Source of the DNA: Felis catus
Taxonomy: Eukaryota
Length of the DNA: 64,000 nucleotides
NCBI RefSeq assembly: GCF_018350175.1
Contig: NC_058368.1
Coordinates: forward strand, 91,018,001-91,082,000
Reading direction: 5' to 3'
The translations under genes and the position numbers were made by a program. A model generated the notes under the pieces. It had not been told where the DNA came from and ran no database searches. It worked only from the letters and a program-made list of their open reading frames with translations. Positions 29,843-62,782 of this stretch are shown here, in pieces. The stretch's first letter is position 1. Each line of letters starts with the position of its first letter.

Positions 29843-30136
<294 letters not shown>

Positions 30137-31421: not shown

Positions 31422-31562
<141 letters not shown>

Positions 31563-31952
31563 TGACATGCCCAGATCTCCAGGAACAGGCCCTGCACCAC
31601 AGGTGGAGCCGGGTGAGGGGTCTTCTCCAGGCATCCCTGCCTCTTTCCTAATAAATCCTCACATGTGACACCAGAGTTTCTGTCCCCTCCACTTCGAACC
31701 CACTATTTCTTCTGTCGGAGCAAACCTGGTGTCTCAGAGTTTCTCACTGTGCTCCAAGCACCCCCCAACTCAGGAATCCCTACTCTGAGGAGCAGTTTCA
31801 GGGTTCTGGCAGTCTTCTGTCCCCCCGTGGACACTGTGGGTGACTGGGTCACTTCACTTTAAGGCCAAAATTGGGGGTTGGTGACACCTGGGTCCCTAGC
31901 CCCAGCATCATCAGGCTTAGCTTAGCCTCTCCTTCCCTGGGGCCTCTGTGTT

Positions 31953-31965
31953 TGCCCCCTGGTGG
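31953..31965 (-). promoter_or_regulatory. Candidate CTCF core
   Basis: tgccccctggtgg. Confidence 0.45.
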
Positions 31966-32433
31966 GCACACTTGTTCCCTTGAGGCGGCTCCAGGCTCCA
32001 TGGCTGGCTGCCCCGGCACCTGCCAGCAGCCTCAGACCCACTTCCCACCCTCCAGCAACTTGACAAAAGATGGGCTTTTCTTACCTTGTCCTTTCTGCCG
32101 AAACTCTGGGCTTGGTTCTCACAGGCTCAGATGAAATCACATGCTCACTCTTCAGCAAATCACTTGCTGAGGGCTGGCTCATGCAGGGGAGCCAAAGCGT
32201 GGGTGACAGACCACTGATGACAGACCATGTGGGCTCAGCCCACAGAAGCCCTGCAGACCTGGTGGTTGGGGATGGGGAGTGGGGAGTGCCCACAGCACCT
32301 GTGCCCCAACATCAGGCCTAAAAAGGCCCCCAAGTCGTCCAGGCCTGAGGTCCCTCCATGCAGGCCTTAAATTCTGGCTACTTTTAGTTCCTGGTAGAAC
32401 TTCTTCAAGACACAGATTTCTAAGCCCACTCTT

Positions 32434-32490
32434 TTTTTTTTTTTTTTTATGAAATTTATTGACAAATTGGTTTCCATACAACACCCAGTG
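32434..32490 (-). mobile_element. Extremely 5'-truncated young feline L1 (3' tip plus polyA)
   Basis: Perfect 14-nt TSD ctaagcccactctt at 32420-32433 and 32491-32504. Confidence 0.85.
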
Positions 32491-32569
32491 CTAAGCCCAC
32501 TCTTAAAGATTTTGGTTTAGGGTAAGGATCAGGAATTACTTTTGTTTTTGTTTTGTTTTGTTTTGTCTT

Positions 32570-33085
32570 ATTTTTAAATTATTTTTCAATTTTTAATTGT
32601 AATAAATTTAGTAATTTAATTTTTTAATATTTGCCCTTTTAACCATCTTCTACAATCCCATGGCCTTTTAGTACATTCACAGTGTTGTGCACCTGTCACC
32701 ATTATGTAGTTCTAGAACTTCATCACCCCAAAGGGAGACCCCATTAAGCAGTGACTCCCCTATTAAGCTGTCTCCAGCCCCTGGCAACCACTAATCTGCC
32801 TCTGTCTCTAAGGATTTTCCCATTCTCAAATTCCACATGAATAGAATCACACAGTATGTGGCCTTTTGTGTCTGGCTTCTCTTGTTGAATGTTATTAAGG
32901 TTCATTTGTATTGTAGCATGTGTCAGTGTTTTATTCCTTTTTATGACTGAATAATATTCTACCTCATGCTTAGACCACAATTCGTTTATCTGTTCATACA
33001 TTGATGGACATTTTGATTGTTCCCACCTTTTGGTATTTGTGAATAGCGCTGCTATAAACACCTGTGTACAAATTTTTGCTTGAAG
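32570..33085 (-). mobile_element. Old L1 3' end (L1MB-like)
   Basis: cccctggcaaccactaatctg...; minus ORF MFIAALFT... Confidence 0.8.
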
Positions 33086-33099
33086 CTCTGGGAATTGTT

Positions 33100-34060
33100 G
33101 TGGTTTTTTGTTTTTTGTGTTTTGTTTTGTTTAATCAAAATTTATTTATTTATTTTCAGGAAGAGAATTTAGTGATTCATCACTTACATATAACACCTAG
33201 TGCTCATCCCAACCAGTATCTTCCTTAGAGGCCATTACCCCTTTAGCCCTTCCCCCCACCCAACACCCTGCCAACAACCCTCAATTTGTTTTCTCTATTT
33301 AGAAGTCTCTTATGATTTGTCACCCTCTCTGTTTTTATCTTATTTTTGCTTTCTTTCCCTTATGTTCATCTGTTTTGTATCTTAAATTCCACAGATGAGT
33401 AAAATCATATGATATTTGTCTTTCTCTAACTGACTTATTCTGCTTAGCTAATACACTCCACTTCCATCCATGTTGTTGCAAATGGCAAGACTTCATTCTT
33501 TTTCATTACCGAGGAATATTCCATTAAATATATATACCACGTCTTCTTTATCCATTCATCAGTCATTGGGCATTTGGGCTCTTTCCATACTTTGGCTATT
33601 GTTGATAGTGCTGCTATAAACATTGGGGTGCATGTGCCCCTTTGAATCAGCATTTTTCTATCCTTTGGATAAATACCTAGTAGTGCAATTACTGGGTTGT
33701 AGGGTAGGTCTAGTTTTAATTTTTTGAGGAACGTCCACACTGTTTTCCCAACCCCATTTGCTCAAAAGACTCTCTTTTTGCCATTGGATATTCTTTCCTG
33801 CTTTGTCAAAGGTTAGTTGGCCATACGTTTGTGGGTCCATTTCTGGGTTCTCTATTCTGTTCCATTGAGCTAAGTGTTTTTGTGCCAGTACCATACTGTC
33901 TTAATGATTACAGCTTTGTAATACAGCTTGAAGTCTGGAATTGTGATACTCCAACTTTGGTGTTCTTTTTCAGGATTGCTTTGGCTATTCGGGGTCTTTT
34001 ATGGTGCCATACAAATTTTAGAATTATTTGTTCTAGCTCTGTGAAGAATGCTGGTGTTAT
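33100..34060 (-). mobile_element. Carnivore L1, 5'-truncated, with an internal deletion
   Basis: ORF2p fragments ([38 protein letters not shown]). Confidence 0.88.
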
Positions 34061-35854
34061 GTTAGGGTGGGAACTGGTGATTTTTAAGAGTGCGCCCAGG
34101 TGATTTGGCAATGCCCCCAGACTTCACGAGCTGTTAGAAGTTCGAGGTGGGTTGTTGTTAGTAATACGCCAGGGATCTCGTAAAGCCAGAACTGACCACA
34201 TAGCCCTCCTCCCGCACAGGAGCTCAGTGGAGGGAACACGGGCCCGGGAGCATTTGCCACATCCCTTATGACCAGCTTTGTAAACACTGAGGTGGGGGCT
34301 GAGACTAGCTAGCATGGCTTCCTGCCCCATCCGTGTCCTTACTTTCGACCCGTCCACCCTGCACAGAGAGAAGGTGGATGCGGTGGGAGGCAGCCCTGCA
34401 CAGGCTTTTACCCCACAGGACCCCCAGCCGCTGGGAGGAACATGGGCCAGAGAATGCCTGCACTTCCAGCCAGTCGGCCCCCCTCTTCTTGTGAGGAGGG
34501 TGAGGGGAGGTGGTGTCTGGTAAGGAAGGTGCCCAGATGTGGCCAAAGCGCTCCTCCTCACAGAAACCACTGACCTGGCCACTGCCCTTCTTTCATTTTA
34601 GGTGGTGGGACCCTGGTTCATTTAGCCCAGTAAATAATATTACATTCTGTTTGTTAAATAACAGAGCAATGCTGAAGGCATCCGGGGCAGAGCTGGGGCT
34701 GGGGTCAGCCCACCCTGGTTCACAAGAGCACAGGGAAAACTGACCCACATCAGGGATTCTTGGTGTGTGTGGAGAGGGTGGGTGCAGGGACACAGGAAGA
34801 GGCAGGCGCACCTCCTGGGACCTATCACACTCCTCTGCCTGTGTGTGTTTGTATGTTGCAGTCTTACTCGTTATTGCATGTAATTTTTTATTTGGGAGGC
34901 AACCCTCCCTTACCTTCCCCTTTCCTGCAAAACAGGGGAGTGAGGAGGGTGCAGGCAGAAGTCTGGCCTCATTGGAGAAATAGCAGGACATCTCAGGGAT
35001 GGGGAGGCATGGCTGTGAAGTGTTCAGCTGTCCCTTTCCCTCTGGCCCCAGCACCACCACCACCACCCCCCTCTCCTGCAGGGAGTGACAGAGCTTAGGC
35101 TCAGGACACAGTGTGGCCTCCTAGGATCCTCATTGTCCACATTCTCCAGCAGCTCATCCCAAGCACGTTGTCCCCTCTTGGCCTCCACACCCAGATTATG
35201 CCCCTGCTTACTCATTGTTGTGTATCCACCATTTCCCAGAGACAGAACAATCCGTACCTACATTCCACACACAGGGATGACCTAGAGAGAGCAAACAAAC
35301 GAACCACCCGCCCTCCACCCTCTAGGTTCACAGTGAGCCTGCCCTGGGTCAGAATCTGTGAGGGTCGGGTAGGCAGGGGATGTCAACAGCACCCTTGGGG
35401 TTCGGGGCCCCGTGCCTCAGAGAAATGAAGCAGAGAGGATCAAGGTGGGGAGGAGCAAGGGCCAGTGGTGTATGGCTCTCCCATGGAATCAAGAGGTGGG
35501 TTTGGCTGAGAGGGGAGAGGGGAGCGTGTTGCCCTCTGACAGAGAAGTGGGCAGTGGGCCTGAGCATCAGTCTGCTTGGTCAGATTCATTCATTCATTCG
35601 TTCCTTCACATTCACTGCATGTGTCTTGCCCCTCCACCTCCTTCAGACCTTACTGTCTGTGGCGGTCAGCCATGAACATGAAGAGGCAGTGAGGACGGGG
35701 CTGGGGAGTGGCCAGTTGGGGAACCCAGAGAGGCTTCCCAGTCAATGACCCCCACTGACGCCCGAAAAGTGAGAGGAGCAGTCCAGGTGGGAGACGGTGC
35801 CGGGAGGGAGCCTGGTGAGGAAGGCCAGGGAGGGCAGATGAAACAGGGAGGACT

Positions 35855-36370
35855 TGTGTTTCATAGTACAGTGTATTTACATAAAATTTGACATGGAGGA
35901 AGTCCAAGAGATCAGAGAAACAGTTTGTTTGTCATGGATCCCGAAGGAAGGGTTCCAGGGGGCCATGCTCCAAAGTACCAGGGTGGGTCAGGTTAGGAGG
36001 CAAAGCATGGGAGCAGCTGTGGTTTCTGTAGAAAAAAACAGGTGAGGCAGGGTAAGCAGGCTTGGGATTGGTCAATGTGAATAATTTCAGTGGGCAGGAG
36101 GGACTGATACCTCTGGTATCATCCAGTACCTTTCCCCCGGGGGTGATTCGAACAGAAGGTGACCTTGAATGTGAGAGTCTGATAGAGGAAGTGTTTGGGT
36201 CATCAGCTCTGGATTATTGGTTGGTTTGCATTTAAAAATCCCACTACTGGGTGAGTTGTTTACTATCCTTAGAAACTGGCTAATCCTGGAAGGGGCAGTC
36301 CCTTTAGGGTCAGCAGGGGTCCAGATGTCAAAGCATCAGAATCCAGGAAACAAAAAACTTGGTGATTACC
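35855..36370 (-). mobile_element. ERVL-class solo LTR, MER74-like (copy 2)
   Basis: gggtcagcaggggtccagatgtcaaagcatcagaa; homologous to 2045-2470. Confidence 0.6.
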
Positions 36371-37513
36371 CATGGCTCCCCAGGAGGCCTGTCCCTGTCG
36401 TGCCCTGTTCAGGGTGCTGGCAACGTTGCTCAAATCTGCTGCCAGACAGGCACGCCCTGGAGCAGAGACAGGCCAAGCACAGAGGGTCCTTTCAGGTGCC
36501 CTCTGCCCCACAGGCCAGGCTGGTGGGCTCACCTTGCCCTCCCTGATTGAGCCAGGGTTGGAGCAGAGGGGGGTCAAAGATGGCTCCCACCTCAGCATGT
36601 TGGCAGGAAAGAGTCCTCCAAGTGCTCTCACATTGACACACAGCATCTTGGGGAAGCAACACCCACTCTCCATTTTCATGAATTTAGTTTCAGAGACACG
36701 GGCCTGGTGTAAGGGCCCCATGATGCCCCTGTGTCATGCCTCATGTTTCCCTTGCACAGCTGAGAAGGGGCAGGCAGGCATAGTGACAGGGGCAGCCCAG
36801 GATCTGGACCCAAAAGTTCAAGCCCTGGGTCTCCTTCCTCACCATGTGACCTCGGGCATCCTTTCTCTTCTCGGGCAAGTCACCTAAGTGTCCAGCTCAC
36901 TTATCCTCACAGGCTCCTGGCATGTGGTACCCACCTGGCACATGCTGGCAGGTAGAGGAAGGCTGAGGACCGCAGTGGTTCAGAAATGCTAACCGTGCAC
37001 TTCCCTGAAACAGGCAGTCTACCTTTCAGGCTTTCAGAGCAACCCAGCAGAATTCCTGGCCCCTGCCTGGATGCATCAGTGTTCTCCACGGTATTATCCT
37101 GTGAAGCAGCTCCCTTGGATTTGTCACAGGCCCAGGATTCACTCAGGACAGGTGGCTTTGTGCTTTTAAATGTTTCAGCCTCTCTATTGTATGAAATATT
37201 TGTAGGCATTTAAACACATGTTTATAAAGCATTTTAATAACCTTAAACATGTTTTTTAAAATAATAGCACTGAGGCATCGGAGTATGAAATTGTTCACAT
37301 GAGGTGATGTCAAATGCTCGTAGTCATTTAGGAGGAAATAAAACAAAATATCGGAAGGATGTCTTCTGAGTCGTGGAATTAAGGGTAGTTTTCCTTTCTT
37401 TCTGCCTTGCTTCGTGTTCTCTACAATGCATGTGTATTGCCTCTGTGCATTTGGACCCAAGTTTGTGGGAGAGGTGGCCCATCACAATGTGGAATGTTCT
37501 GAGTTGTCCTGAG

Positions 37514-37593
37514 CCCAGCTTCCTATTTCCAGACTAGGCACCGATTTGTCCCACCCAGCTTCCTATTTCCAGACTTGGCACCAATTTGTCCCA
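37514..37593. repeat. 40-nt tandem duplication (2 mismatches)
   Basis: cccagcttcctatttccagact(a/t)ggcacc(g/a)atttgtccca twice. Confidence 0.95.
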
Positions 37594-37719
37594 TAGGGAC
37601 AAGGGGACCACTGTCTAGCCTCCTCCATCCTCCTGGTCCTTGGTGCCCTCGACCAGCAGTGACTTGGAAGTTGGACCCCAGTCACAGCCTTCAGAGATGC
37701 CAGGAGCCCTCACTCCCTC

Positions 37720-38062
37720 TGTGTCTGAGTCAGCTCAGGGTGCTGTAACAAAAATATCATAGACTGGGGGGATTCAACAGCCAACATTTGTCTCTCCCAG
37801 TTCTGGAGGCTGGAAGTCTGAGATCAGGATGCCAGACTGGTCAGGTTCTGGCGACAGCTACAGAATGCCATCTGCCCTTGCTGTGTCCTCACGTTTCAGA
37901 GACAGAAATAGTCTTTCTAGTGTCTTTTTATAAAGGTGCCAATCTCATAAGGGGCTTCACCCTCATGACCACCGGGTCATGTGATGGGTCTAATACCATC
38001 ACACTGGTGCTTAGGCTTGAACATAAGAATTTGGAGAGGATGCAAACGTTCATTCCACAGCA
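37720..38062 (-). mobile_element. MaLR (MLT1-type) LTR remnant
   Basis: gctgtaacaaaaatatcatagactgggg...cagttctggaggctggaagtctgagatcagg. Confidence 0.75.
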
Positions 38063-38440
38063 TCTTCTTACCTGGGCCCTCTTCCCTGCCTGCCAGCCCC
38101 ACCTTGCACCACCAGCTGGGGGGCCACCAGCCAGTGTTTCTGTGGGTTCTTTCTTTCTCTTCAATGATTGAGTGAGGGGCACTTTGGGGTAAGATATGAG
38201 GTAACTGTGGTCTGGAAGGTCATGACCAGCATCATTGGTGGCCTGCAGACACATCTGCCTGACCCCAGGCTTGCCAGCTGTGCACCAGCCTTATGATGGT
38301 GGAGCCTTTGACTGCTTGCCCAGACCCTGGGAAGGAGAATCTGGAGAGTGGAAGACTCTGTCTCACCTCACAAGGGCTCACACTGGTATGAAGGCAGGTC
38401 TGGGAGTCCCTTGGTAGGTTAGGAAGGGTGAGAAGCCTAT

Positions 38441-39378
38441 GGAAGGAAGGAAGGAAGGAAGGAAGGAAGGAAGGAAGGAAGGAGAGGGAGAGAGGGAGGG
38501 AGAAAGGAAGGAAGGGAAAGAAGAAGGAAGGAAGGAAGGAAGGAAGGAAGGAAGGAAGGAAGGAGAGGGAAAGAGAGGAAGGGAGGAAGGAAGGAAAGGA
38601 AAGGAAAGAAGAAGGAAGGAAGGGAGGGAGGGAGGAAGGAAGGAAGAGAAAAAGGAAGGGAAGGAGGAAGGAAGGAAGGGAAAAAGGAAGGAAGGAGGGA
38701 GGGAGGAAGGAAGGAAGGAAGGAAAGAAGGAAGGAAGGGAGGAAGGAAGGGAGAGAAGAAGGAAGGAAGGAAGGAAGGAAGGAAGGAAAGGAAGGAGAGG
38801 GAGAGAGGGAGGGAGAAAGGAAGGAAGGGAAAGAAGAAGGAAGGAAGGAAGGAAGGAAGGAAGGAAGGAGAGGGAGAGAGGAAGGGAGGAAGGAAGGAAA
38901 GGAAAGAAGAAGGAAGGGAGGGAGGGAGGAAGGAAGGAAGGAAGGAAGAGAAAAAGGAAGGAAGGAAGGAAGGAAGGGAGGGAGGGAGGGAGGGAGGAAG
39001 GAAGGAAGGAAGGGAGGGAGGGAGGGAGGAAGGAAGGGAAAAAGGAAGGAAGGAAGGGAAATGGAAGGAAAGAAGGGAGAGAAGAAGGGAGGAAGGAAGG
39101 AAGGAAGGAAGAGAAGAAGGGAGGGAGGGAGGGAGGGAGGGAGGGAGGGAGGGAGGAAGGAAGGAAGGGAAGAAGGAAGGAAGGAAGGGAGAGAAGGAAG
39201 GGAGGGAGGGAGGGAGGAAGAAAGGAAGGAAGGGAAAGAGGAAGGAAGGGAGGGAGGAAGGAAGGAAGGGAAAAAGGAAGGAGGGAAGGAAGGGAGAGAA
39301 GAAGGTAGGGAGGAAGGTAGGGAGGGAGGAAAGAAGGAAGGAAGGAAGGAAGGAAGGAAGGAAGGAAGGAAGGAAGAG
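38441..39378. repeat. 938-nt polypurine (GGAA/GGGA)n complex satellite
   Basis: Almost purely A/G; I found only three T (39062, 39306, 39318). Confidence 0.97.
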
Positions 39379-40255
39379 CTGAGGCAGGCTCCCAAGCAGA
39401 GATGTGCACAGGGGTAGGGGAGGCAGGCATGGGTTTGTCTGAGAGAGGAGAACCAGGAGGGAAGCGTGGCAGTGACGTGGGTACAGAGTTGGCAGCATGG
39501 CTCCCTAGGAATGGACTCTGAGACAGAGATCCAATTGTGGGCATCTTCCTGGGGAACGCCTGTAGGATCACGTCTGTGGGAAGAGTGAGGCATCAAATAG
39601 CAATATGGCCACGTTATGGGTCTCAGCAGACCCCACCCAAAGCTCTGGGCTGAACTTTCAGACCTGTGCCCAACTTTGACCAGTGGTTGGCTGTGGCTAT
39701 TCCCAGGAAAGAGGCATGACTCTGGGCTAGGCAGCGCTCTTTGGCTGAGGGCATTTCCTGGAAAAGGACTCAACTGTGAGCATGGACAACCAACACACTT
39801 CATGGCTGGGGGAGCGAGAGCCTCAGTCCTGAAGGGGGATGTCTTTTTGGCATCTGCTGCCCTGGGTGTGGGGGAAGGAAGTGGAGTGTTAGGCTTCCTG
39901 AGCAGCAGCATTTGCAAAGGCTGGGAGGGAAGCAAGTGTGGTCTGTCCAGAGACCAGTCAGTGTCTGGGTGCCTGGCATGGTGGTGGGCAATGAGGCAGG
40001 AGGGGCGAGTAGGAGCCGGTCAGGCAGGGCCAGGCTAGGCTAAAGAGCTAGTCTGAATCCTGCAGCAGCAGGAGCCTGCGGAAGGTTTTGAGAGAAGAGC
40101 AGAGGTGAATCCACCATGAATCTTAGGATGCGTGTGCTCCAGCACCTCATACTTCCATTGGGTCCCTTACGATGTCATGTGTTCACATGGTCATGTGTTT
40201 TCATAAAGTTTGCAGAAGTAATTTAACTGTAATCAATTAAGATCACTTCTCTTTT

Positions 40256-40499
40256 GGGGCGCCTGGGTGGCGCAGTCGGTTAAGCGTCCGACTTCAGCCA
40301 GGTCACGATCTCGCGGTCCGTGAGTTCGAGCCCCGCATCGGGCTCTGGGCTGATGGCTCAGAGCCTGGAGCCTGTTTCCGATTCTGTGTCTCCCTCTCTC
40401 TCTGCCCGTCGCCCGTTCATGCTCTGTCTCTCTCTGTCCCAAAAGTAAATAAACGTTGAAAAAAAAATTAAAAAAAAATTTTTTTAAATAAAAAAAAAA
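40256..40499 (+). mobile_element. Young SINEC_Fc
   Basis: 17-nt TSD aagatcacttctctttt at 40239-40255 and 40500-40516. Confidence 0.95.
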
Positions 40500-41297
40500 A
40501 AGATCACTTCTCTTTTCACATCCCCTTCCCCTCCGATATACTTCTTGCACCAGCAGTAGAGTGGCAATGTGTGCTCTGTGGCTTCAACTAAGGAGAAATT
40601 GCATTTGAAGTCTGTTTACTGGCTTGTGTATGTGGTCTCAGTATCTTTCGTGTCCAGTTAAGTTACTGACTGTAGCTGTCCAGGGGCAGGAATAACGTCT
40701 AGAGACACTCCGGCCACCACCACGTCAATTCACTGTGGAATCTGCGTGGTACGCAGCTCATGGCCCTCAGATCATTGCAGAAAAAGTGGCTCAGCTATAC
40801 CTGAGGGCACAGCGGCTTCCGTATTGGCAATAGTTTATGTTTGCCTCTGAGGTTTATCTTGCAGACGGGCTCCTTTAAACACAGATCCAACTTGGGTGTT
40901 TCTTTAAAAAGGCTAAGTGTAACCAGATGGTCTGCTTGTTAAAAAGCTGTCCACGCCTCACAGCATATGGATTTCAAAATATAAGAGGTGCTAAAATAAA
41001 TTTTCAGAGACCAGGAGAGAAAGCTGAGTGCAAATGGGATGCAGAAAGTTTATTCAAAACGTTGATGAAGCTTCAATACACCAGTTGAACTGCAACTTTG
41101 AAAGTTGTTTTGGAACTCTTCGGTAAAAAAATAAGGGAGAAATTACAGACTTCTGATTTGGACAGATGCATAAAGGTACCATCTTTTTCAAATTTATGTA
41201 TTAAATAAAATTCAGGTAAAAATTAATAGAAGGCAAGAGGAGGAAAAGGAGTAAAGAAATGAGGAGAAGTAATGCCGACTTCAAAAATTTAACTGTA

Positions 41298-41510
41298 GGG
41301 GAACCTGGGTGGCTCAGTCGGTTGAGCGTCCGACTTCAGCTCAGGTCATGATCTCATGGCTCATGGGTTCGAGCCCCACATTGGGCTCTGTGCTGACAGT
41401 GTAGAGCCTGGAGCCTGCTTTCGATTCTGTGTCTCCCTCTCTCTCTGTCCCGTTCACACTGTCGCTTTCTCTCAAAAATAAATAAATGTTAAAAAAAAAT
41501 TTTTTAACAC
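41298..41510 (+). mobile_element. CanSINE
   Basis: TSD aaaaatttaa(c/t)tgta. Confidence 0.92.
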
Positions 41511-41962
41511 AAAAATTTAATTGTAACAAGAAAAGGTTTCAGATCAAACCCAAAGCAGCCATTCATTAGGAGGAAGAGATAAATATCAAAGGGAAGGAAC
41601 AGACAGGCTCTTGAAATGTTTGACATTAACTGGATTCAGTTAATGAAGAGGGGTGAATTTGATGAGCACATTGGAAAAGCATTTAAACTTCTTTCTGACT
41701 TGACATGAAATGTTGACAACATCAAAGACAACATGAAGCTCAGAATATTACCCCTGCAATAAGTAAGAATGTCAACAGGAACTGTTACTGAGTGTTCCCA
41801 ATTCAGAGAGCGTTTAAAATCAGGCTGAGAGAGAAAACTTGAAATGCCCTGAAATCCACATCAGAAAACAAACTGGATAGCAGTGTCTCCAGATTTGATC
41901 ATCTCAGTGTTCCCATTACACCACCAATAGCTTATCTAAATTATCAATAATTTGAAAATGAA

Positions 41963-42160
41963 GGGGAGCTGGGGAGCTCGGTCAGGTAAGTGTCAGCACT
42001 CTTGATTTCTGCTCAGGTCACGGTCTCACGGTTCATGACATCGAGCCCCACCTGGGGCTCAGCACTGACAGCACAGAGCCAGTTTGAGATTCTCTCTGTC
42101 CCTTTCTCTCTGCCCCTTCCCACCTCAAAATAAATAAATAAACTTTAAAAAAAATAAAGA
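41963..42160 (+). mobile_element. Older CanSINE
   Basis: Diverged SINE head and A tail. Confidence 0.85.
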
Positions 42161-42990
42161 AAATATTTCCCTCAACCTGCTCAAACCAGGATTAGCAAGC
42201 TGTCACACACAGACCCATGCTTCCTGCCACCTGGTTTCCTCCCCTCCCCCACCAACAGCTTCATTAAGATGTGATTCACATTCAAAATCGCCAGTTCATG
42301 GTTTTCAATATATTCACAGAGTTGTGCAACTATCACCACAATCAAATTTTAGAATATTGTTGTCACTCCCCAAAGAAGCCGCGTCCTGGTTAGCAGTCTC
42401 TCTGGTTCAATCCTCTCCACTCAGCCTCCACCACAGTCCTGAGCAATCACTAATCTCCTTTCTGTCTCTGTAGATTTGCCTCTTCGGGACATTTCTTATA
42501 AATGGACTCATATAATATGTGTCCTTTGTTCCTGGCTTTCTTTAATAGTATAGCATTCCTAAGACTCATCCGCGTTGTAGCGTCTATCTATGTTGTAGTG
42601 TGTGTCCATACTTTATTCCTTTTAGTGGCTAATAATCCATTGTGGAGATAACACTGTGTTTTATTTATCCATTTGTCATTCGATGGGCATCTGAATTGTT
42701 TCTGCTTTTCAGCTCTTATGAGAAACGCTGCTATGAACGTTCCTGTATGAGTTATGGGTAGATGCGTCGCTTTTCTTGGATACGTACCTGGGAGTGGAAT
42801 TGTTGAATCTTAACCGCAGCTCTCTGTCTCACGTTTTGCAAAACTGCCAGACCAGTTCCCAAAGCAGCTGCACTTTTTTTACATTTGAGCTAGCATTGTT
42901 GTGAGGGTTCTGATTTCTCCACATCCTCCCTGGAACTTGTTGTACTCTGTGTTTTTCTTGGATGTGGATGTGAAGTGTTACTTTGTTGTG

Positions 42991-43218
42991 GTTTTTTTTG
43001 TTTTGTTTTGTTTTTTAGAGAGAAAGAGAGCATGTGCATGCTTGCATGAGTGGGGAAGGGGCAGAGGGAGAGAGAGAGCGAGAGAGAGGGAATCCCAAGC
43101 AGGCTCCACACTCAGCACAGAGCCTGATGCAGGGCTCCAACCCACAAATCATGAGATCATGACCTAAGCCGAAATCAAGAGTCAGACGCTTAATGGACTG
43201 AGCCACCCAGGCACCCCC
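42991..43218 (-). mobile_element. CanSINE
   Basis: Reverse-strand SINE within L1. Confidence 0.9.
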
Positions 43219-43998
43219 TTACTGTGGTTTTGATTTCCCTAGTGATGTTGAGCATCTTTTCATCATGTGCTTAGTGGCTGTTCATATATATATATACACA
43301 CACAAACATACACACACATATATGTGTGTGTTTCTTTTGGGGGGATAGATGTTTGTTCATTTCCTCTGCATATTTTCTAATTGAGTTATTCATCTTTCTA
43401 TTATTGAGTTATAGGAGTTCTTTATATATTCTGGATACAAGTCCCGTATTGGGGTTATCAGATGGATCATTTGCAAGCATTTTCTCCCATTTTGTGGGTT
43501 GTCTTTTCAATTTCATGACAGTATCATTTGAGGCACAAAAGGTTTCAATATTGGTGAGATCCAATGTATCGGTTTTTTTTTTTCTTTTGTTGCCTGTGCT
43601 TCTAGCGTTGTATCTAAGAAATCATTGCCGTTAGGTCAAGAAGATGTATTTCTGTGTTGTATTCGGAGTATAGTCCTCACATTTAGGTTTATGATCCATT
43701 TTCAGCTGATTTTTTTGTGTGAGGTGTGAGATAGGGATCCAATTTCATCCTTCTTTGCGTGTGGATTTCCAGTCATCTCAGCACCATTATCAAAGAGACT
43801 TTTCTCTTTCCATTGAATCATCTTGTCATCCTTGTTGAAAACCAACTGACCACATGTAAGGGCTCATTTCTGGAGTGTGCATTCTGTTGCATCAATAGAT
43901 TTGTCTTTCCTTATGGGAGGGGCACATGGTCTTGATTACTGTAGTTTTGTACTAAGCTTTGAAGTAGGGAAGCATGAGTCATCCTACTTTGTTCTTTT

Positions 43999-44205
43999 TC
44001 TTTTTTTTTTTTTCCTAAAGATTTATTTATTTTTGAGAGAGAAGAGTACAAGTGGGGAAGGGATAGAGGGTGGCAGGTACAGAAGATCTGAAGCAGGCTC
44101 CACACTGATAGCAGTGAACCCAATGCAGGGCTCAAACTCATGAGCCGTGAGATCATGACCTGAGCCAAGTCTGATGCTCAACTGACTGAGCCACCCAGTT
44201 GCCCC
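43999..44205 (-). mobile_element. CanSINE
   Basis: TSD cctactttgttctttttc. Confidence 0.92.
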
Positions 44206-44825
44206 TACTTTGTTCTTTTTCAAGATTGTTCTGGCTGTTCCCAGTCCTTTGAGCTGTCAGAATGGCTAGAACCAAAAAAATAAAGAAATAACAAGTGTTG
44301 ATGAGGATGTCCATGTCAATTTTAGGAGCAGTTTCTCAATTTCTGCAAAACTCCAGTAGGGATTTTGATAAGATTACATTGAATCTAGAGTGTCGACATA
44401 CTAACAGCCTGACCCATAAAATGGGATGTCTTTCTTTTTATTTGGATCTTTATTTCAACAGTGTTTTGTAGTTTTCAGTGTACATATTTTGCACTTCCTT
44501 GACTCCATTTATTACTAAGGTTTTTTTTTTCTTTTTGGTGCTATTGTAGACAGATTTTCAGTTTCACATTCAGTTTATTCATAGAATAAAATTCACGGAA
44601 ATAACAATTGATTTTTCTATATGGATCTTGTGCCCTGCCATCTCGCTGAATTTCTTTATTGGATCTAATAGTTTTTTAGCAGATTCTTTAGGAGTTTATA
44701 TAAGATCATGTCATCTGCAAGTAGAGATAGTTTTACTTCTTCTGTTCCAGTCTGGATGTCTTTTGTTTCTTTTTCTTGGCCACTTGTCCTGGCAAGAACT
44801 TCCAGTACAATGTTATTAGAAGTCT

Positions 44826-45193
44826 TTTTTTTATTTTATTTTTTATAATTCACATCCAAATTAGCTAGCATATAGTGCAACAATGATTTCAGGAGTAGAT
44901 TCCTTAGTGCCCCTTACCCATTTAGCCCATCTCCCCTCCCACAACCCCTCCAGTAACCCTCTTTTGTTCTCCATATCTAAGAGTCTCTTATGTTTTGTTC
45001 CCCTCCCTGTTTTCACATTATTTTTGCTTCCCTTCCCTTATGTTCATCTGTTTGGTCTCTTAAAGTCCTCATGTGAGTGAAATATTTGTATTTCCCTGAC
45101 TGACTAATTTCACTTAGCACGATACCCTCCAGTTCCATCCACATAGTTGTGAAAGGCAAGATTTCATTCTTTTTGATTTCCAAGTAATACTCC

Positions 45194-45263
<70 letters not shown>

Positions 45264-45505
45264 CCACATCTTCTTTATCCATTCATCCATTGATGGACAT
45301 TTGGGCTCTTTCCATGCTTTGGCTATTGTTGATAGTGCTGCTATAAACATTGAGGTGCATGTGTCCCTTCGAAACATCATACCTATATCCCTTGGATAAA
45401 TACCTAGTTGTGCAATTGCTGGGTCGTAGGGTAGTTCTATTTTCAGTTTTATGAGGAACCTCCATACTGGTTTCCAGAGTGGCTGCACCAGCTTGCATTC
45501 CCATA
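44826..45505 (-). mobile_element. Younger carnivore L1 3' end inserted in the old L1, containing a (GT)n(AT)n microsatellite
   Basis: ORF2p C-terminus (KLKIELPYDPAIAQLGIYP); flanking tagaagtctt at ~44817 and ~45550. Confidence 0.88.
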
Positions 45506-45671
45506 CCTACATCTCTCCTACCAACCAACGTGCCAGTGGTAAATTCCCATAGAAGTCTTGTTCCTGATCACGGGGCAAGCATTCATCCCTTCGTGATTAA
45601 GCATGATGTTAGCTGTGTGTATTTCCTCAATGTCCTTTATCAGATTGAGGAAATTCTCTTCTGCTCCTTGT

Positions 45672-45674
<3 letters not shown>

Positions 45675-45718
<44 letters not shown>

Positions 45719-45722
45719 GTGT
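45675..45722. repeat. (GT)n microsatellite
   Basis: Read directly from sequence. Confidence 0.95.
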
Positions 45723-46434
45723 TTTCAGGAAAGGATGTTGAATATTGCCAGATTTCTTTTTTTGAGTCTTGCAGCAATCATACAGTTCGTTCTTTATTCT
45801 GTTAATATGGTTTATTACATTGATTTATTTTCAGATGTTAAACCTGCATTCCTGGGTAAACGTCACTTGGTCATGGTATATAATCTTTTAATATGATGTT
45901 AGATTTGGTTTGCTAGGGTTTTGTTGAGGATTTTTCCATCTGTTTTCATAAGAGATAAAGGTCTTTGTCTGATTTTGGTATCAGACTAATGCTAGCCTCA
46001 GAGAATGAATAGGGAAATTTCTTCCTCTTCTATATTTTGGAAGAGTTTTTAAAGGATTGGTATTAATTTTTCTTTAAATGTTTGGTAGAATTCACCAGAG
46101 AAACCATCTGGGATTGGGCTATAATTTGTGGGAAGTTTTAAATCACCAATTTAGCCTCTTTGCTTGTTATTCATCTGTTCTGATTTGCTATATCTTATTA
46201 AGTTGGTTTTGGTAGTCTGTGTTTCTTCTAGAAACTTCTAGAATTTAAATTATTCTTTGGTGCCATTTGCTTTCAGCCTGAATAACTTCCTTTAGTATTT
46301 TCTTACGAGGCATGCTGCTAGCAACGAAATCTCCCTGTTGCTGTTTGTGTGGGAGTATTTTTTTCACCTTTATTGTTGAGAGCTAATTTTACTGGTCATC
46401 CTTAATTAACACCACTGCCTCTGGCCTTCATTAT

Positions 46435-46657
46435 TTTGTTTTTAATATTTTTAAATTTTTTAATGTTTATTTATTTATGAGAGAGACAGAGTGTGAGTGG
46501 GGGAGGGGCAGAGAGAGAGGGAAACACAGAAATCGAGGCAGGCTCCAGGCTCCAAGCGGTCAGCACAGAGCCCTACATGGGGCTTGAACTCACAAACTGC
46601 GAGATCATGACCTGAGCTGAAGTGGGACGCTCAACCAACTGAGCCACCCAGGTGCCT
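46435..46657 (-). mobile_element. CanSINE
   Basis: Reverse-strand SINE body. Confidence 0.9.
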
Positions 46658-46835
46658 CGAGTACACATTCTTGAATAAACATTTCTCTATTTGTTGTATC
46701 GACTTTAGAACAATCTCCAGATATTTTGAGTGGTTGTTGAAAAACAAAAAAGGATTTTCACCAGTTACGTGGTTATCCTACTGAGGAGAGAGTTCACCCG
46801 GCTCCTCACAGGTCCACTGTAGATGTTTCTGTTTG

Positions 46836-46995
46836 CTGCCTGTTTTTGTAAACAGAGTTTTATCGGAACACAGTCCATTCACTTATCTGTTGTCGGTAGC
46901 CGTGTTCATGCCCCAGTGGCAGAGCTGAGTAGTTGCAACTGAGATCATGCAGCCAAAGTAGCTACTGGCCCTCACAGAAAAAGTGTGCTGAGGCA
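46836..46995 (+). mobile_element. MER58-like hAT-Charlie MITE (3' part; 5' part at ~42187-42238)
   Basis: gcctgtttttgtaaacagagttttatcggaacacag...ggcagagctgagtagttgcaac...ctggccctcacagaaaaagt. Confidence 0.7.
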
Positions 46996-47047
46996 TGGCT
47001 GCGTTATCTTTCTATTCTCAATACGGAAAACAGTTCCGCTACAAAAT

Positions 47048-47124
47048 GACATCTTGAAACTGGACGACAGCCGGGGTGCCCGGGGTCTGTTCGGCTCCTG
47101 TTCGCGAACCTGCAGTCCAGGTGT
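47048..47124 (+). pseudogene. Diverged 77-nt copy of part of ADAMTS2 exon 11 (48170-48246)
   Basis: Ungapped 59/77 identity by hand; translates [26 protein letters not shown] vs [26 protein letters not shown]. Confidence 0.85.
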
Positions 47125-47171
47125 CCTGTGAAGAGGGAATGGAGGAGTGTGCCGTCAGAATTTCAGGAAAA

Positions 47172-47382
47172 GGAGGCGCCCGGGTGTTGGTTAAGTGTCC
47201 GCCTCTTGGTTTTAGCTCAGTTCGTGATCTCATGGTTTCCTGAGTTCGAGCCCCGCATGGGGCTCTGTCATGGGGCTCTGTGCTGGCAACGCGGAGCCTG
47301 CTTAGGATTCTCTCCCTCCCTTGCTCTTTGCCCCTCCCCCACTCACACTGTTTCCGTCTCTCTAAAAAAAAAAAATACTAAA
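47172..47382 (+). mobile_element. CanSINE
   Basis: TSD agaatt(t/g)caggaaaa. Confidence 0.9.
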
Positions 47383-48118
47383 AAGAATTGCAGGAAAAGT
47401 TATGAAAAGTTGTGACAGTCAGTGAATCTGAAAAAAAATCATTGTTCTCTGCTTCCGGTTGTTTGTGGTACTGGACCCTTTTAAATTTTTAACTTTTTGT
47501 GATGGCTTTTCTTATCCTAAGTCAGTATTCCATTTCCTATCTGATCTAGTATTTTAAATTTTGTAATCTTTTTCCCTGAAATGGCCCTGAATTACATAAG
47601 CGTCTTCCCCATGGCAGGCTGGGGAGCGGTGTGACCAGATTCATGCTGTGGATTTGTGTTCCCTGAGCTCAAGTGTTCTACTCACTGTATTCCTGAATTT
47701 TTAGCATGTCAGCTTGTCAACTGACCTTCATTTCCATTATATGTCTTTGAAGTTGCCTTTTGTACGTAAACAAGTAGATCCTGTATGTCTCTGGAGTCAC
47801 TGGCTTGACCTGCCGGTTGCATCTTTATGAAAGGGCCTGGTGTGGGCTTCACCTGGGGACATGGTGTGGGGCAGGCTCTGGCGGAGGGGACAGCAGGCTG
47901 GACAAGATGTTGAGGATGGCTGGGAGACCAAGACGGTGGTCAGGGGGGAGGAGGGTGTCTTTCACCTCGCTGCACCTCCTGATGGGGCTCTGACTTTCTA
48001 GGGCGAGTAGGGTCTGCTCTCTCTCAGAACCTCTAGAGCCAAACCAATCTCAAAGGAACTGCAGGTAGAAAGGTATGGGGTGTCTGAGTGGCCCTGGAGT
48101 GGTGGGTCATAGGAGTGA

Positions 48119-48280
<162 letters not shown>

Positions 48281-53034: not shown

Positions 53035-53520
53035 AGAACAGTGTCTCCTTAATTTCCGCAGGGTTTTCATTAATGGAGGTGACTGAGTGACCCACAGAGA
53101 GGTCAATGCCTTTGAGGAAGAGTGTGTTACTTATGTTTCCTGAGGGAAACTACGCAGGGCCACACGGGGAAGCACCAGATTTGATCGGGAGGTAGAAGGG
53201 AGTGGGGGGCAGCTTAAGCCAGAGCTTTTACTGGCGCTTCCTTGGGAAAGGCAAGACGGAGCAGGAGAGACAGTTGAGGATTAGTTAGTATGAATAATCC
53301 AGGTAGGTTCCGGGCTGTAGGGGTGGTCCCTAGTTTCCTGGTACCTGGCCTTAGGATGATTTCAGGCAGGGGAAGGATCAGCTTGGTGCGTGAGAGGCAG
53401 ATAAAGGGAGTGATTGCTGGATTGTCGGTTTACCTATGAAAGGCGTGCCCCCACACCAGCCCTTTGCTGTTTCCAAGAATCAGCGTGAGGGAGGGGCAGC
53501 CTCTTCCTAGCTAGTATGTT
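53035..53520 (-). mobile_element. ERVL-class solo LTR, MER74-like (copy 3)
   Basis: atggaggtgactg...cagggccacacggggaagcacca...ggtacctggcc...; homologous to copies 1 and 2. Confidence 0.6.
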
Positions 53521-58055: not shown

Positions 58056-58331
<276 letters not shown>

Positions 58332-59442: not shown

Positions 59443-59662
59443 AGGGTGCCTGGGTGGCTCAGTCAGTTAAGCGTCTGACTTCAGCTCAGGTCGTGATCTC
59501 ACAGTTTGTGAGTTCAAGCCCCACACTGGGCTTTGTGCTGACAGCTCAGAGCCTGAAGCATGCTTCAGATCCTTTGTCTCCCTTTCTCTGCCCCTCCCCT
59601 GCTCACACTATATCTGTCTGTCTATCTCAAAAATATATAAACATTTTAATTAATTAATTAAT
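59443..59662 (+). mobile_element. CanSINE
   Basis: TSD aagggtttcc. Confidence 0.9.
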
Positions 59663-62530: not shown

Positions 62531-62622
62531 CAGCTCGTGTGCCTTGGCGTGAGTTTCTAAGCTGGCTGCCGAGGAAGGGTGAACAGTGGGGCAAACACCT
62601 TCGTGGCCATTTCTGGGCACAG

Positions 62623-62782
62623 GTCATCCCGCAGGGAGACGCCCGGATCTCACTGACGTACAAGTACATGATCCACGAGGACTCGCTCAACGTAGACGGC
62701 AACAATGTCCTGGAAGACGACTCTGTGGGCTACGAGTGGGCCCTGAAGAAGTGGACTCCTTGCTCCAAGCCCTGTGGTGGAG
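62623..62782 (+). CDS. ADAMTS2: ADAMTS2 exon 17, 160 nt (end of spacer, start of second TSP1 repeat)
   Basis: ggcacag|GTC...GGAG|gtgagg; [53 protein letters not shown](G); phase 0-1. Confidence 0.96.

Follow-up and report, generated by a model that had tools for sequence, protein, structure and literature searches.

A degenerate 78-base copy of the middle of an ADAMTS2 exon is present in the cat genome in the intron directly upstream of that same exon. The copy is real, and it was probably produced by a neutral, locally templated gap-filling insertion of the exon fragment. The window analyzed here is a 64,000-nucleotide stretch of Felis catus contig NC_058368.1 (assembly GCF_018350175.1, positions 91,018,001 to 91,082,000 of the forward strand), and all coordinates below refer to it.

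The copy and its source exon

ADAMTS2 is a collagen-processing gene and the dermatosparaxis gene. Its exons in the window were mapped by TBLASTN with full-length ADAMTS2, which located 13 of them, all on the + strand and with consistent phases. Away from alignment ends, the encoded proteins show zero differences from Leopardus geoffroyi and Prionailurus ADAMTS2, and several differences from the ADAMTS2 of otters, seal, bear and raccoon dog, which marks the window as felid. In protein clustering at 90%, ADAMTS2 (P0013) is grouped with the hnRNP H proteins P0125, P0132 and P0133, probably a clustering artefact that arose via a fused gene model. The exon of interest, an intact coding exon of 146 nt at 48134-48279 (+ strand) that contains the start of a TSP_1 domain, is supported by protein, Pfam and splice-site evidence, and its translation matches vertebrate ADAMTS2 among the best 120 of 316 matches in a protein search. 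We take it to be exon 11 by human numbering. The preceding exon was placed at 31422-31535 (+ strand) by TBLASTN and splice phases, and the copy sits in the 16.6-kb intron between the two (31536-48133), directly upstream of its source exon. By alignment, it occupies 47047-47124 (+ strand), corresponds to the source segment 48169-48246 (+ strand) and consists of the linker and first half of the central TSP1 repeat.

Copy and source are close together in cis, separated by 1045 bases at an offset of 1122. Between them lies a younger SINE (47173-47383, + strand), presumably of the carnivore tRNA-SINE type, bounded by a 16-bp target duplication (47157-47172 and 47384-47399); before its insertion, the gap was 817 bases and the offset 895. 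Within the SINE, 13 bp are perfectly duplicated in tandem at 47256-47281.

The match was originally proposed in a sequence-only reading of this DNA, as an ungapped same-strand alignment of 47048-47124 with 48170-48246 at an offset of 1122 with 59 of 77 bases identical. All of these values were reproduced, and the alignment gains one base on the left (47047/48169), giving 60/78 identical bases (77%), still without gaps. A BLASTN self-comparison of the window, a check suggested by that reading, recovered the copy and the exon with an E value of 2e-9. When 300 dinucleotide shuffles of the 77-mer were each scored for their best ungapped match anywhere in the window, the best reached 42/77 (mean 37.8, sd 1.2) as opposed to 59/77 for the real sequence, which rules out a chance match; the second-best real site for the 77-mer in the window has 39/77. 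Among the 13 window exons, only the source exon has a clear copy elsewhere in the window, the next-best exon match having an E value of 0.002. Two ADAMTS2 exon regions, 29959-29994 and 62605-62638, also match each other in inverted orientation over 36 nt (81%, E 0.002), probably by chance. The translation of the copy was as originally read, with CGG at both WxxW Trp codons and seven codons differing purely synonymously; another nine codons differ in residue. No match to the copy sequence was found in PDB or Pfam, a protein search with its reading frame gave no candidate, and a metagenome scan returned 11 loci, none of which is a mammalian ADAMTS2 intron. The stretch 46996-47176 is present in 20 of the 24 runs listed (13 studies, two organism labels, metagenomes), one of which may be the window's own sample, and an assembly artefact is therefore unlikely as the origin of the copy.

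The copy retains the ADAMTS2-specific linker that precedes the TSP1 domain, with 18 of its first 25 bases identical to the exon; the Pfam TSP_1 match begins later. For comparison with paralogues, residues were counted by eye against alignment rows from the available supplements of PMC549037. Of its 26 residues, the copy shares 17 with the window ADAMTS2, 13 with human ADAMTS3 and 10 with ADAMTS14 in those rows, which rules out either paralogue as the source at the protein level. With a single match in the window and the best protein fit to ADAMTS2, the parent is unambiguous: as judged from these comparisons, the source of the copy is ADAMTS2, as first proposed. The copy has Ser at one position where the exon has Asn, and it had been suggested that this Ser preserves an ancestral base, human ADAMTS2 being said to have Ser as well. 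The human residue is indeed Ser in the PMC549037 alignment rows, but the suggestion fails. Among 106 homologue segments (from the best 120 homologue matches, 14 off-pattern rows being dropped), the residue is Asn in 73, His in 31 and Ser in 2. The Asn group includes tenrec, anteater, rodents, Old World monkeys, marsupial, platypus and reptiles, and Asn is also found in macaque-family monkeys, rhinoceros and carnivores. By this census, Asn is the ancestral state, which makes the Ser of the copy a parallel change.

Ends, surroundings and origin of the copy

In the origin that we favor, a germ-line break would have struck old transposon-derived DNA that lay no more than about 0.9 kb upstream of the exon. 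As the break was repaired, one broken end would have switched template to the nearby exon, about 78 bases would have been synthesized, and synthesis would then have returned to the other end via a few bases of homology, the route being gap filling or synthesis-dependent end joining. The resulting patch, without splice sites, would have been non-coding from the start and would have drifted neutrally for some 100 My, during which purifying selection continued to act on the exon. An old, locally templated insertion that did not involve retrotransposition had also been proposed in the sequence-only reading, and it stands as the best reading; polymerase theta, which that proposal also named, is not singled out by the sequence.

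Marks of retrotransposition are missing from the copy, as originally noted. There is no poly(A) tail and no target duplication: AATAAA is absent from 47031-47172, no A tail is seen, and no repeat of more than 3 bases is shared by the two flanks. The source segment begins 35 nt past the acceptor and stops 33 nt short of the donor, so the copy contains neither splice site and crosses no junction. Processed pseudogenes and class 1 (L1-mediated) TSIPs are likewise exon-only and in sense orientation, but they are marked by exon-exon junctions, a poly(A) tail and a target duplication, none of which is seen in the copy. Class 2 templated sequence insertions (TSI/TSIP), as described in the accessible text of Onozawa and Aplan (2016; PMC5110952), share with the copy the lack of a target duplication, poly(A) signal or tail. 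However, the donor of the copy is 1.1 kb away in the same gene, whereas TSIP donors are distant, and the copy is ancient, whereas TSIPs are polymorphisms in living humans.

Because the copy lies wholly within one exon, its sequence is equally compatible with a DNA and an RNA template. A nascent or mature ADAMTS2 transcript, or a cDNA, could have templated the patch at a break in the same gene, which would suit its exon-only content and sense orientation. In the available part of PMC5110952, transcribed sequence is overrepresented among experimental templated insertions, which become fewer with reverse-transcriptase inhibitors and, like the copy, lack both poly(A) and a target duplication. Their donors, however, lay in distant regions and not in nearby DNA, and nearness to the parent is described as a hallmark of DNA gap filling in the portion of Tan et al. 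(2021; PMC8277862) that was available. Furthermore, the copy crosses no exon-exon junction, and its exon content is accounted for by a detection bias, since an intron-templated copy of such age would have decayed on both sides. We regard an RNA template as an unlikely alternative to the DNA template that we favor. A-to-I editing of an RNA template, considered for the 3 A>G and 4 T>C changes, was rejected, as it needs both strands to have been edited and 7 changes run in the opposite direction.

The sequences on either side of the copy bear on whether it is the remnant of a larger tandem duplication of the exon region, cut back at either end through later deletions or insertions. Copy and source are on the same strand and were 0.9 kb apart before the SINE arrived, and both flanks can be made to align if gaps are forced. 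Such alignments are no better than those of shuffled sequence: the score of the left flank against the upstream sequence of the exon was reached by 236/1000 shuffles, and the two scores of the right flank against the downstream sequence were reached by 738/1000 and 246/1000. In addition, identity falls from 77% to background simultaneously at both ends of the copy. The left flank (46996-47046, + strand; window translation and flank alignment), unrelated to the sequence upstream of the exon, reads WLRYLSILNTENSSATK, and the right flank (47125-47172, + strand; window translation), as a whole unrelated to the sequence downstream of it, reads SCEEGMEECAVRISGK from 47124. A further argument against a tandem duplication is that the flanks read as consecutive parts of what we take to be one transposase tail. 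Taken together, these observations make a trimmed tandem duplication quite improbable. A whole-exon duplicate or mutually exclusive exon is ruled out by the unalignable flanks and the missing splice sites.

Homology at the junctions is limited. On the left side, at most 3 bases are shared. On the right, the sequence TGTGAAG had been reported both at the end of the source and 3' of the copy, and both occurrences were found, at 48244-48250 across the right end of the source segment and at 47127-47133 (+ strand). Only 134 of 20000 random 15-mers do as well, so this match near the junction is probably not due to chance. Its proposed role as a microhomology is less straightforward. The occurrence at 47127-47133 is 5 bases off the diagonal of the copy, and clean re-annealing there would have left no extra bases. 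TGTGAAG might have assisted pairing; alternatively, the copy might run on as far as TGTGAAG beyond a later 5-base insertion, a continuation that a tandem duplication could also accommodate.

The copy appears to interrupt an old DNA transposon. We consider it quite likely, from features of the family, that WLRYLSILNTENSSATK and SCEEGMEECAVRISGK are consecutive pieces of the C-terminal tail, and KRLSVTRWSA the middle, of a hAT-Tip100 (Zaphod-type) transposase. The latter motif lies at ~40900 in a reading frame of a SINE-broken segment (40100-41950, + strand) that is presumed to be the upstream part of the same fossil. About 5 kb separates this segment from the left flank, presumably made up of L1, SINEs and a short MER-type element. 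The nested pile at 40100-47660 is presumed to be a full-length old DNA transposon split by several SINEs, and we take it to include an old L1 of ~4.5 kb that was in turn broken up by SINEs and a piece of a younger L1. A representative protein search with the upstream fossil gave one relative, the 58-aa P0146 with 66% identity. Searches of the flanks and the upstream fossil against Pfam, PDB, proteins and the Atlas gave no hAT match, and when viral contigs were scanned for a motif of the host element, all 10 loci returned were unrelated. In hand-picked windows, an inverted match of 16/18 was found between ~40108-40123 and 47638-47655 (equaled in 7/1000 shuffles), but in a wider search for terminal inverted repeats it was neither the best match nor above chance. 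Zaphod is listed, without sequence, among human autonomous hAT families in the accessible part of PMC5753468.

Several other repeats were observed in the window. A GGAA array of 936 bp in the same intron (38441-39376) has 231 copies with 82% matches, and a 40-bp tandem duplication at 37514-37593 is 95% identical. Low-copy interspersed matches of 70-79% at 2128-2465, 36041-36341 and 53152-53208, as well as the pair 448-550 and 37732-37835 (also 70-79%), probably belong to old repeat families. The sole Rfam match in the window is a weak tRNA at 59448-59532, at the head of a SINE.

The closest parallel to the favored gap-filling origin is found among the Pack-TIRs of Tan et al. (PMC8277862). The available portions of that study describe 370 Pack-TIRs in 100 animal genomes, nearly all single-copy, with 208/370 in hATs, 160/281 less than 15 kb from the parent (most of those <5 kb), microhomology in 67.6% (median 2 bp) and exon capture in 13.4%. 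Single-copy Pack-TIRs are attributed there to transposition-independent gap filling. Like them, the copy is a short exonic fragment, in cis and <5 kb from its parent, single-copy, and apparently joined with a few bases of junction homology at most. It would also lie inside an old TIR-transposon relic, probably a hAT, the commonest type of host. At 78 bp and 77% identity, it differs from the published Pack-TIRs in falling below both thresholds of the pipeline (>100 bp and >=90% identity to the parent), which are detection cut-offs and do not define the mechanism. Two cat Pack-TIR cases are given in the accessible material, both elsewhere in the genome, and neither ADAMTS2 nor Zaphod occurs in the 12 supplementary files available. 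In the literature searched, which included few subscription papers, no earlier description of the ADAMTS2 copy was found.

Capture of the fragment in a transposition-linked event, either by repair of an excision gap or while the element was mobile, might be suggested by the age of ~100 My estimated below, which may overlap the period in which old hAT families were active. It is nevertheless highly unlikely, as the copy is single in the window and adjoins its parent, whereas multicopy transposed Pack-TIRs are always distal and single-copy ones transposition-independent, as far as the available text of PMC8277862 describes them.

Decay, age and weak splice signals

Over the 25 codons compared between copy and exon, pN is 0.17 and pS is 0.45 (Fisher p 0.03), and pS is compatible with twice pN (p 0.46). 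A twofold ratio is what is expected when only the exon is constrained, because replacements then accumulate on the copy alone and silent changes on both. The pattern thus fits a neutral copy that would have been dead on arrival. Both Trp residues and the Gly at codon 7 are invariant in 106/106 homologue segments and altered in the copy. Selection for an open frame need not be invoked, as 58% of simulated neutral copies are stop-free. In these respects the copy is like the protein fossils in the accessible text of Frith (2022; PMC9004415), decayed once-coding fragments from partial gene duplication. The exapted fossils in that text are marked by conservation, of which the window gives no sign for the copy.

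At non-degenerate, non-CpG sites, 7/44 positions differ, or 0.18 after correction (95% interval 0.07-0.38). With a felid rate of 1.8e-9 per site and year, taken from the available part of PMC4643047, this divergence would put the age of the copy at about 100 My (39-213). On this estimate, the insertion event probably predates cats and may be common to other placental orders. Of the nine residue-changing substitutions, five replace A/T with G/C, and 6 CpG are retained in the copy (p 0.03-0.10, depending on assumed biases), which is a little odd for neutral methylated DNA. The simplest reading would be a regional bias, because the fossil DNA adjoining the copy is also fairly CpG-rich.

The copy had also been suggested to act as a splicing decoy, an idea that is not supported by the strength of the sites around it. 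The matrices used for scoring were derived from the 13 acceptors and 12 donors present in the window, a small training set. The nearest upstream CAG (47031-47033, + strand) is a weak acceptor by matrix score and out of frame with the copy; as claimed, its use gives FRYKMTS-stop. The acceptor at 47034 scores -3.6, at the 63rd percentile among 1331 intron AGs, as compared with 2.2 to 13.4 for the 13 real acceptors when each is left out of its own matrix. All 16 GT sites in 47060-47200 score <=2.8, whereas 11 of the 12 real donors score 7.6 to 12.2 and one scores 1.6. The copy is thus not flanked by a recognizable acceptor and donor, as a pseudoexon would be, by these matrix scores. An AG at its 3' end (47116) scores 7.1, but its use would leave out nearly the entire copy. 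The weakest of the 13 real acceptors (2.2), at 58172-58191, ends in AACAAAG and precedes the 81-nt exon at 58192. The short human ADAMTS2 isoform presumably ends in an Alu-derived exon within the intron at 31536-48133 (intron 10), with no apparent connection to the copy.

It would be a bolder proposal that the copy is early-placental, widely shared and kept because enhancer sequence derived from the exon attracts splicing factors and tunes ADAMTS2 intron 10, or that it is a fossil of nascent-RNA-templated cis repair, and we regard this as very improbable. That the copy now acts in splicing at all, as a decoy or poison exon or as an enhancer cluster that tunes the long intron, is something we hardly expect. 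Its derivation from an exon, its position 1 kb from the real acceptor, the early stop that would follow from the CAG at 47031-47033 and the CpG and G/C kept in it could be cited in favor, as could the 5 of 8 exonic human Pack-TIRs that are transcribed, some in retained introns, in the part of PMC8277862 available. Against such a role, the acceptor and GT sites score below nearly all real sites and the substitution pattern appears neutral. Copy and exon share one orientation and therefore cannot pair with each other. Moreover, all 20 of the listed runs in which 46996-47176 is present contain at least 0.81 of its 16 words, flanks included, as DNA or unspliced RNA would, though runs with only part of it, as from a rare small exon, could lie further down the ranking. 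Most likely, the copy has no present function.

If a neutral, locally templated gap-filling insertion is the correct reading, the copy is one more local templated duplication and carries little weight alone; it would matter more only if it affected ADAMTS2 splicing. With a conserved exon as template, such events would nevertheless be readable back to ~100 My, well past the limit of 90% identity given in the available text of PMC8277862. A scan for exon fragments beside their parents could extend the record of Pack-TIRs and gap filling, and could also yield rare phylogenetic markers.
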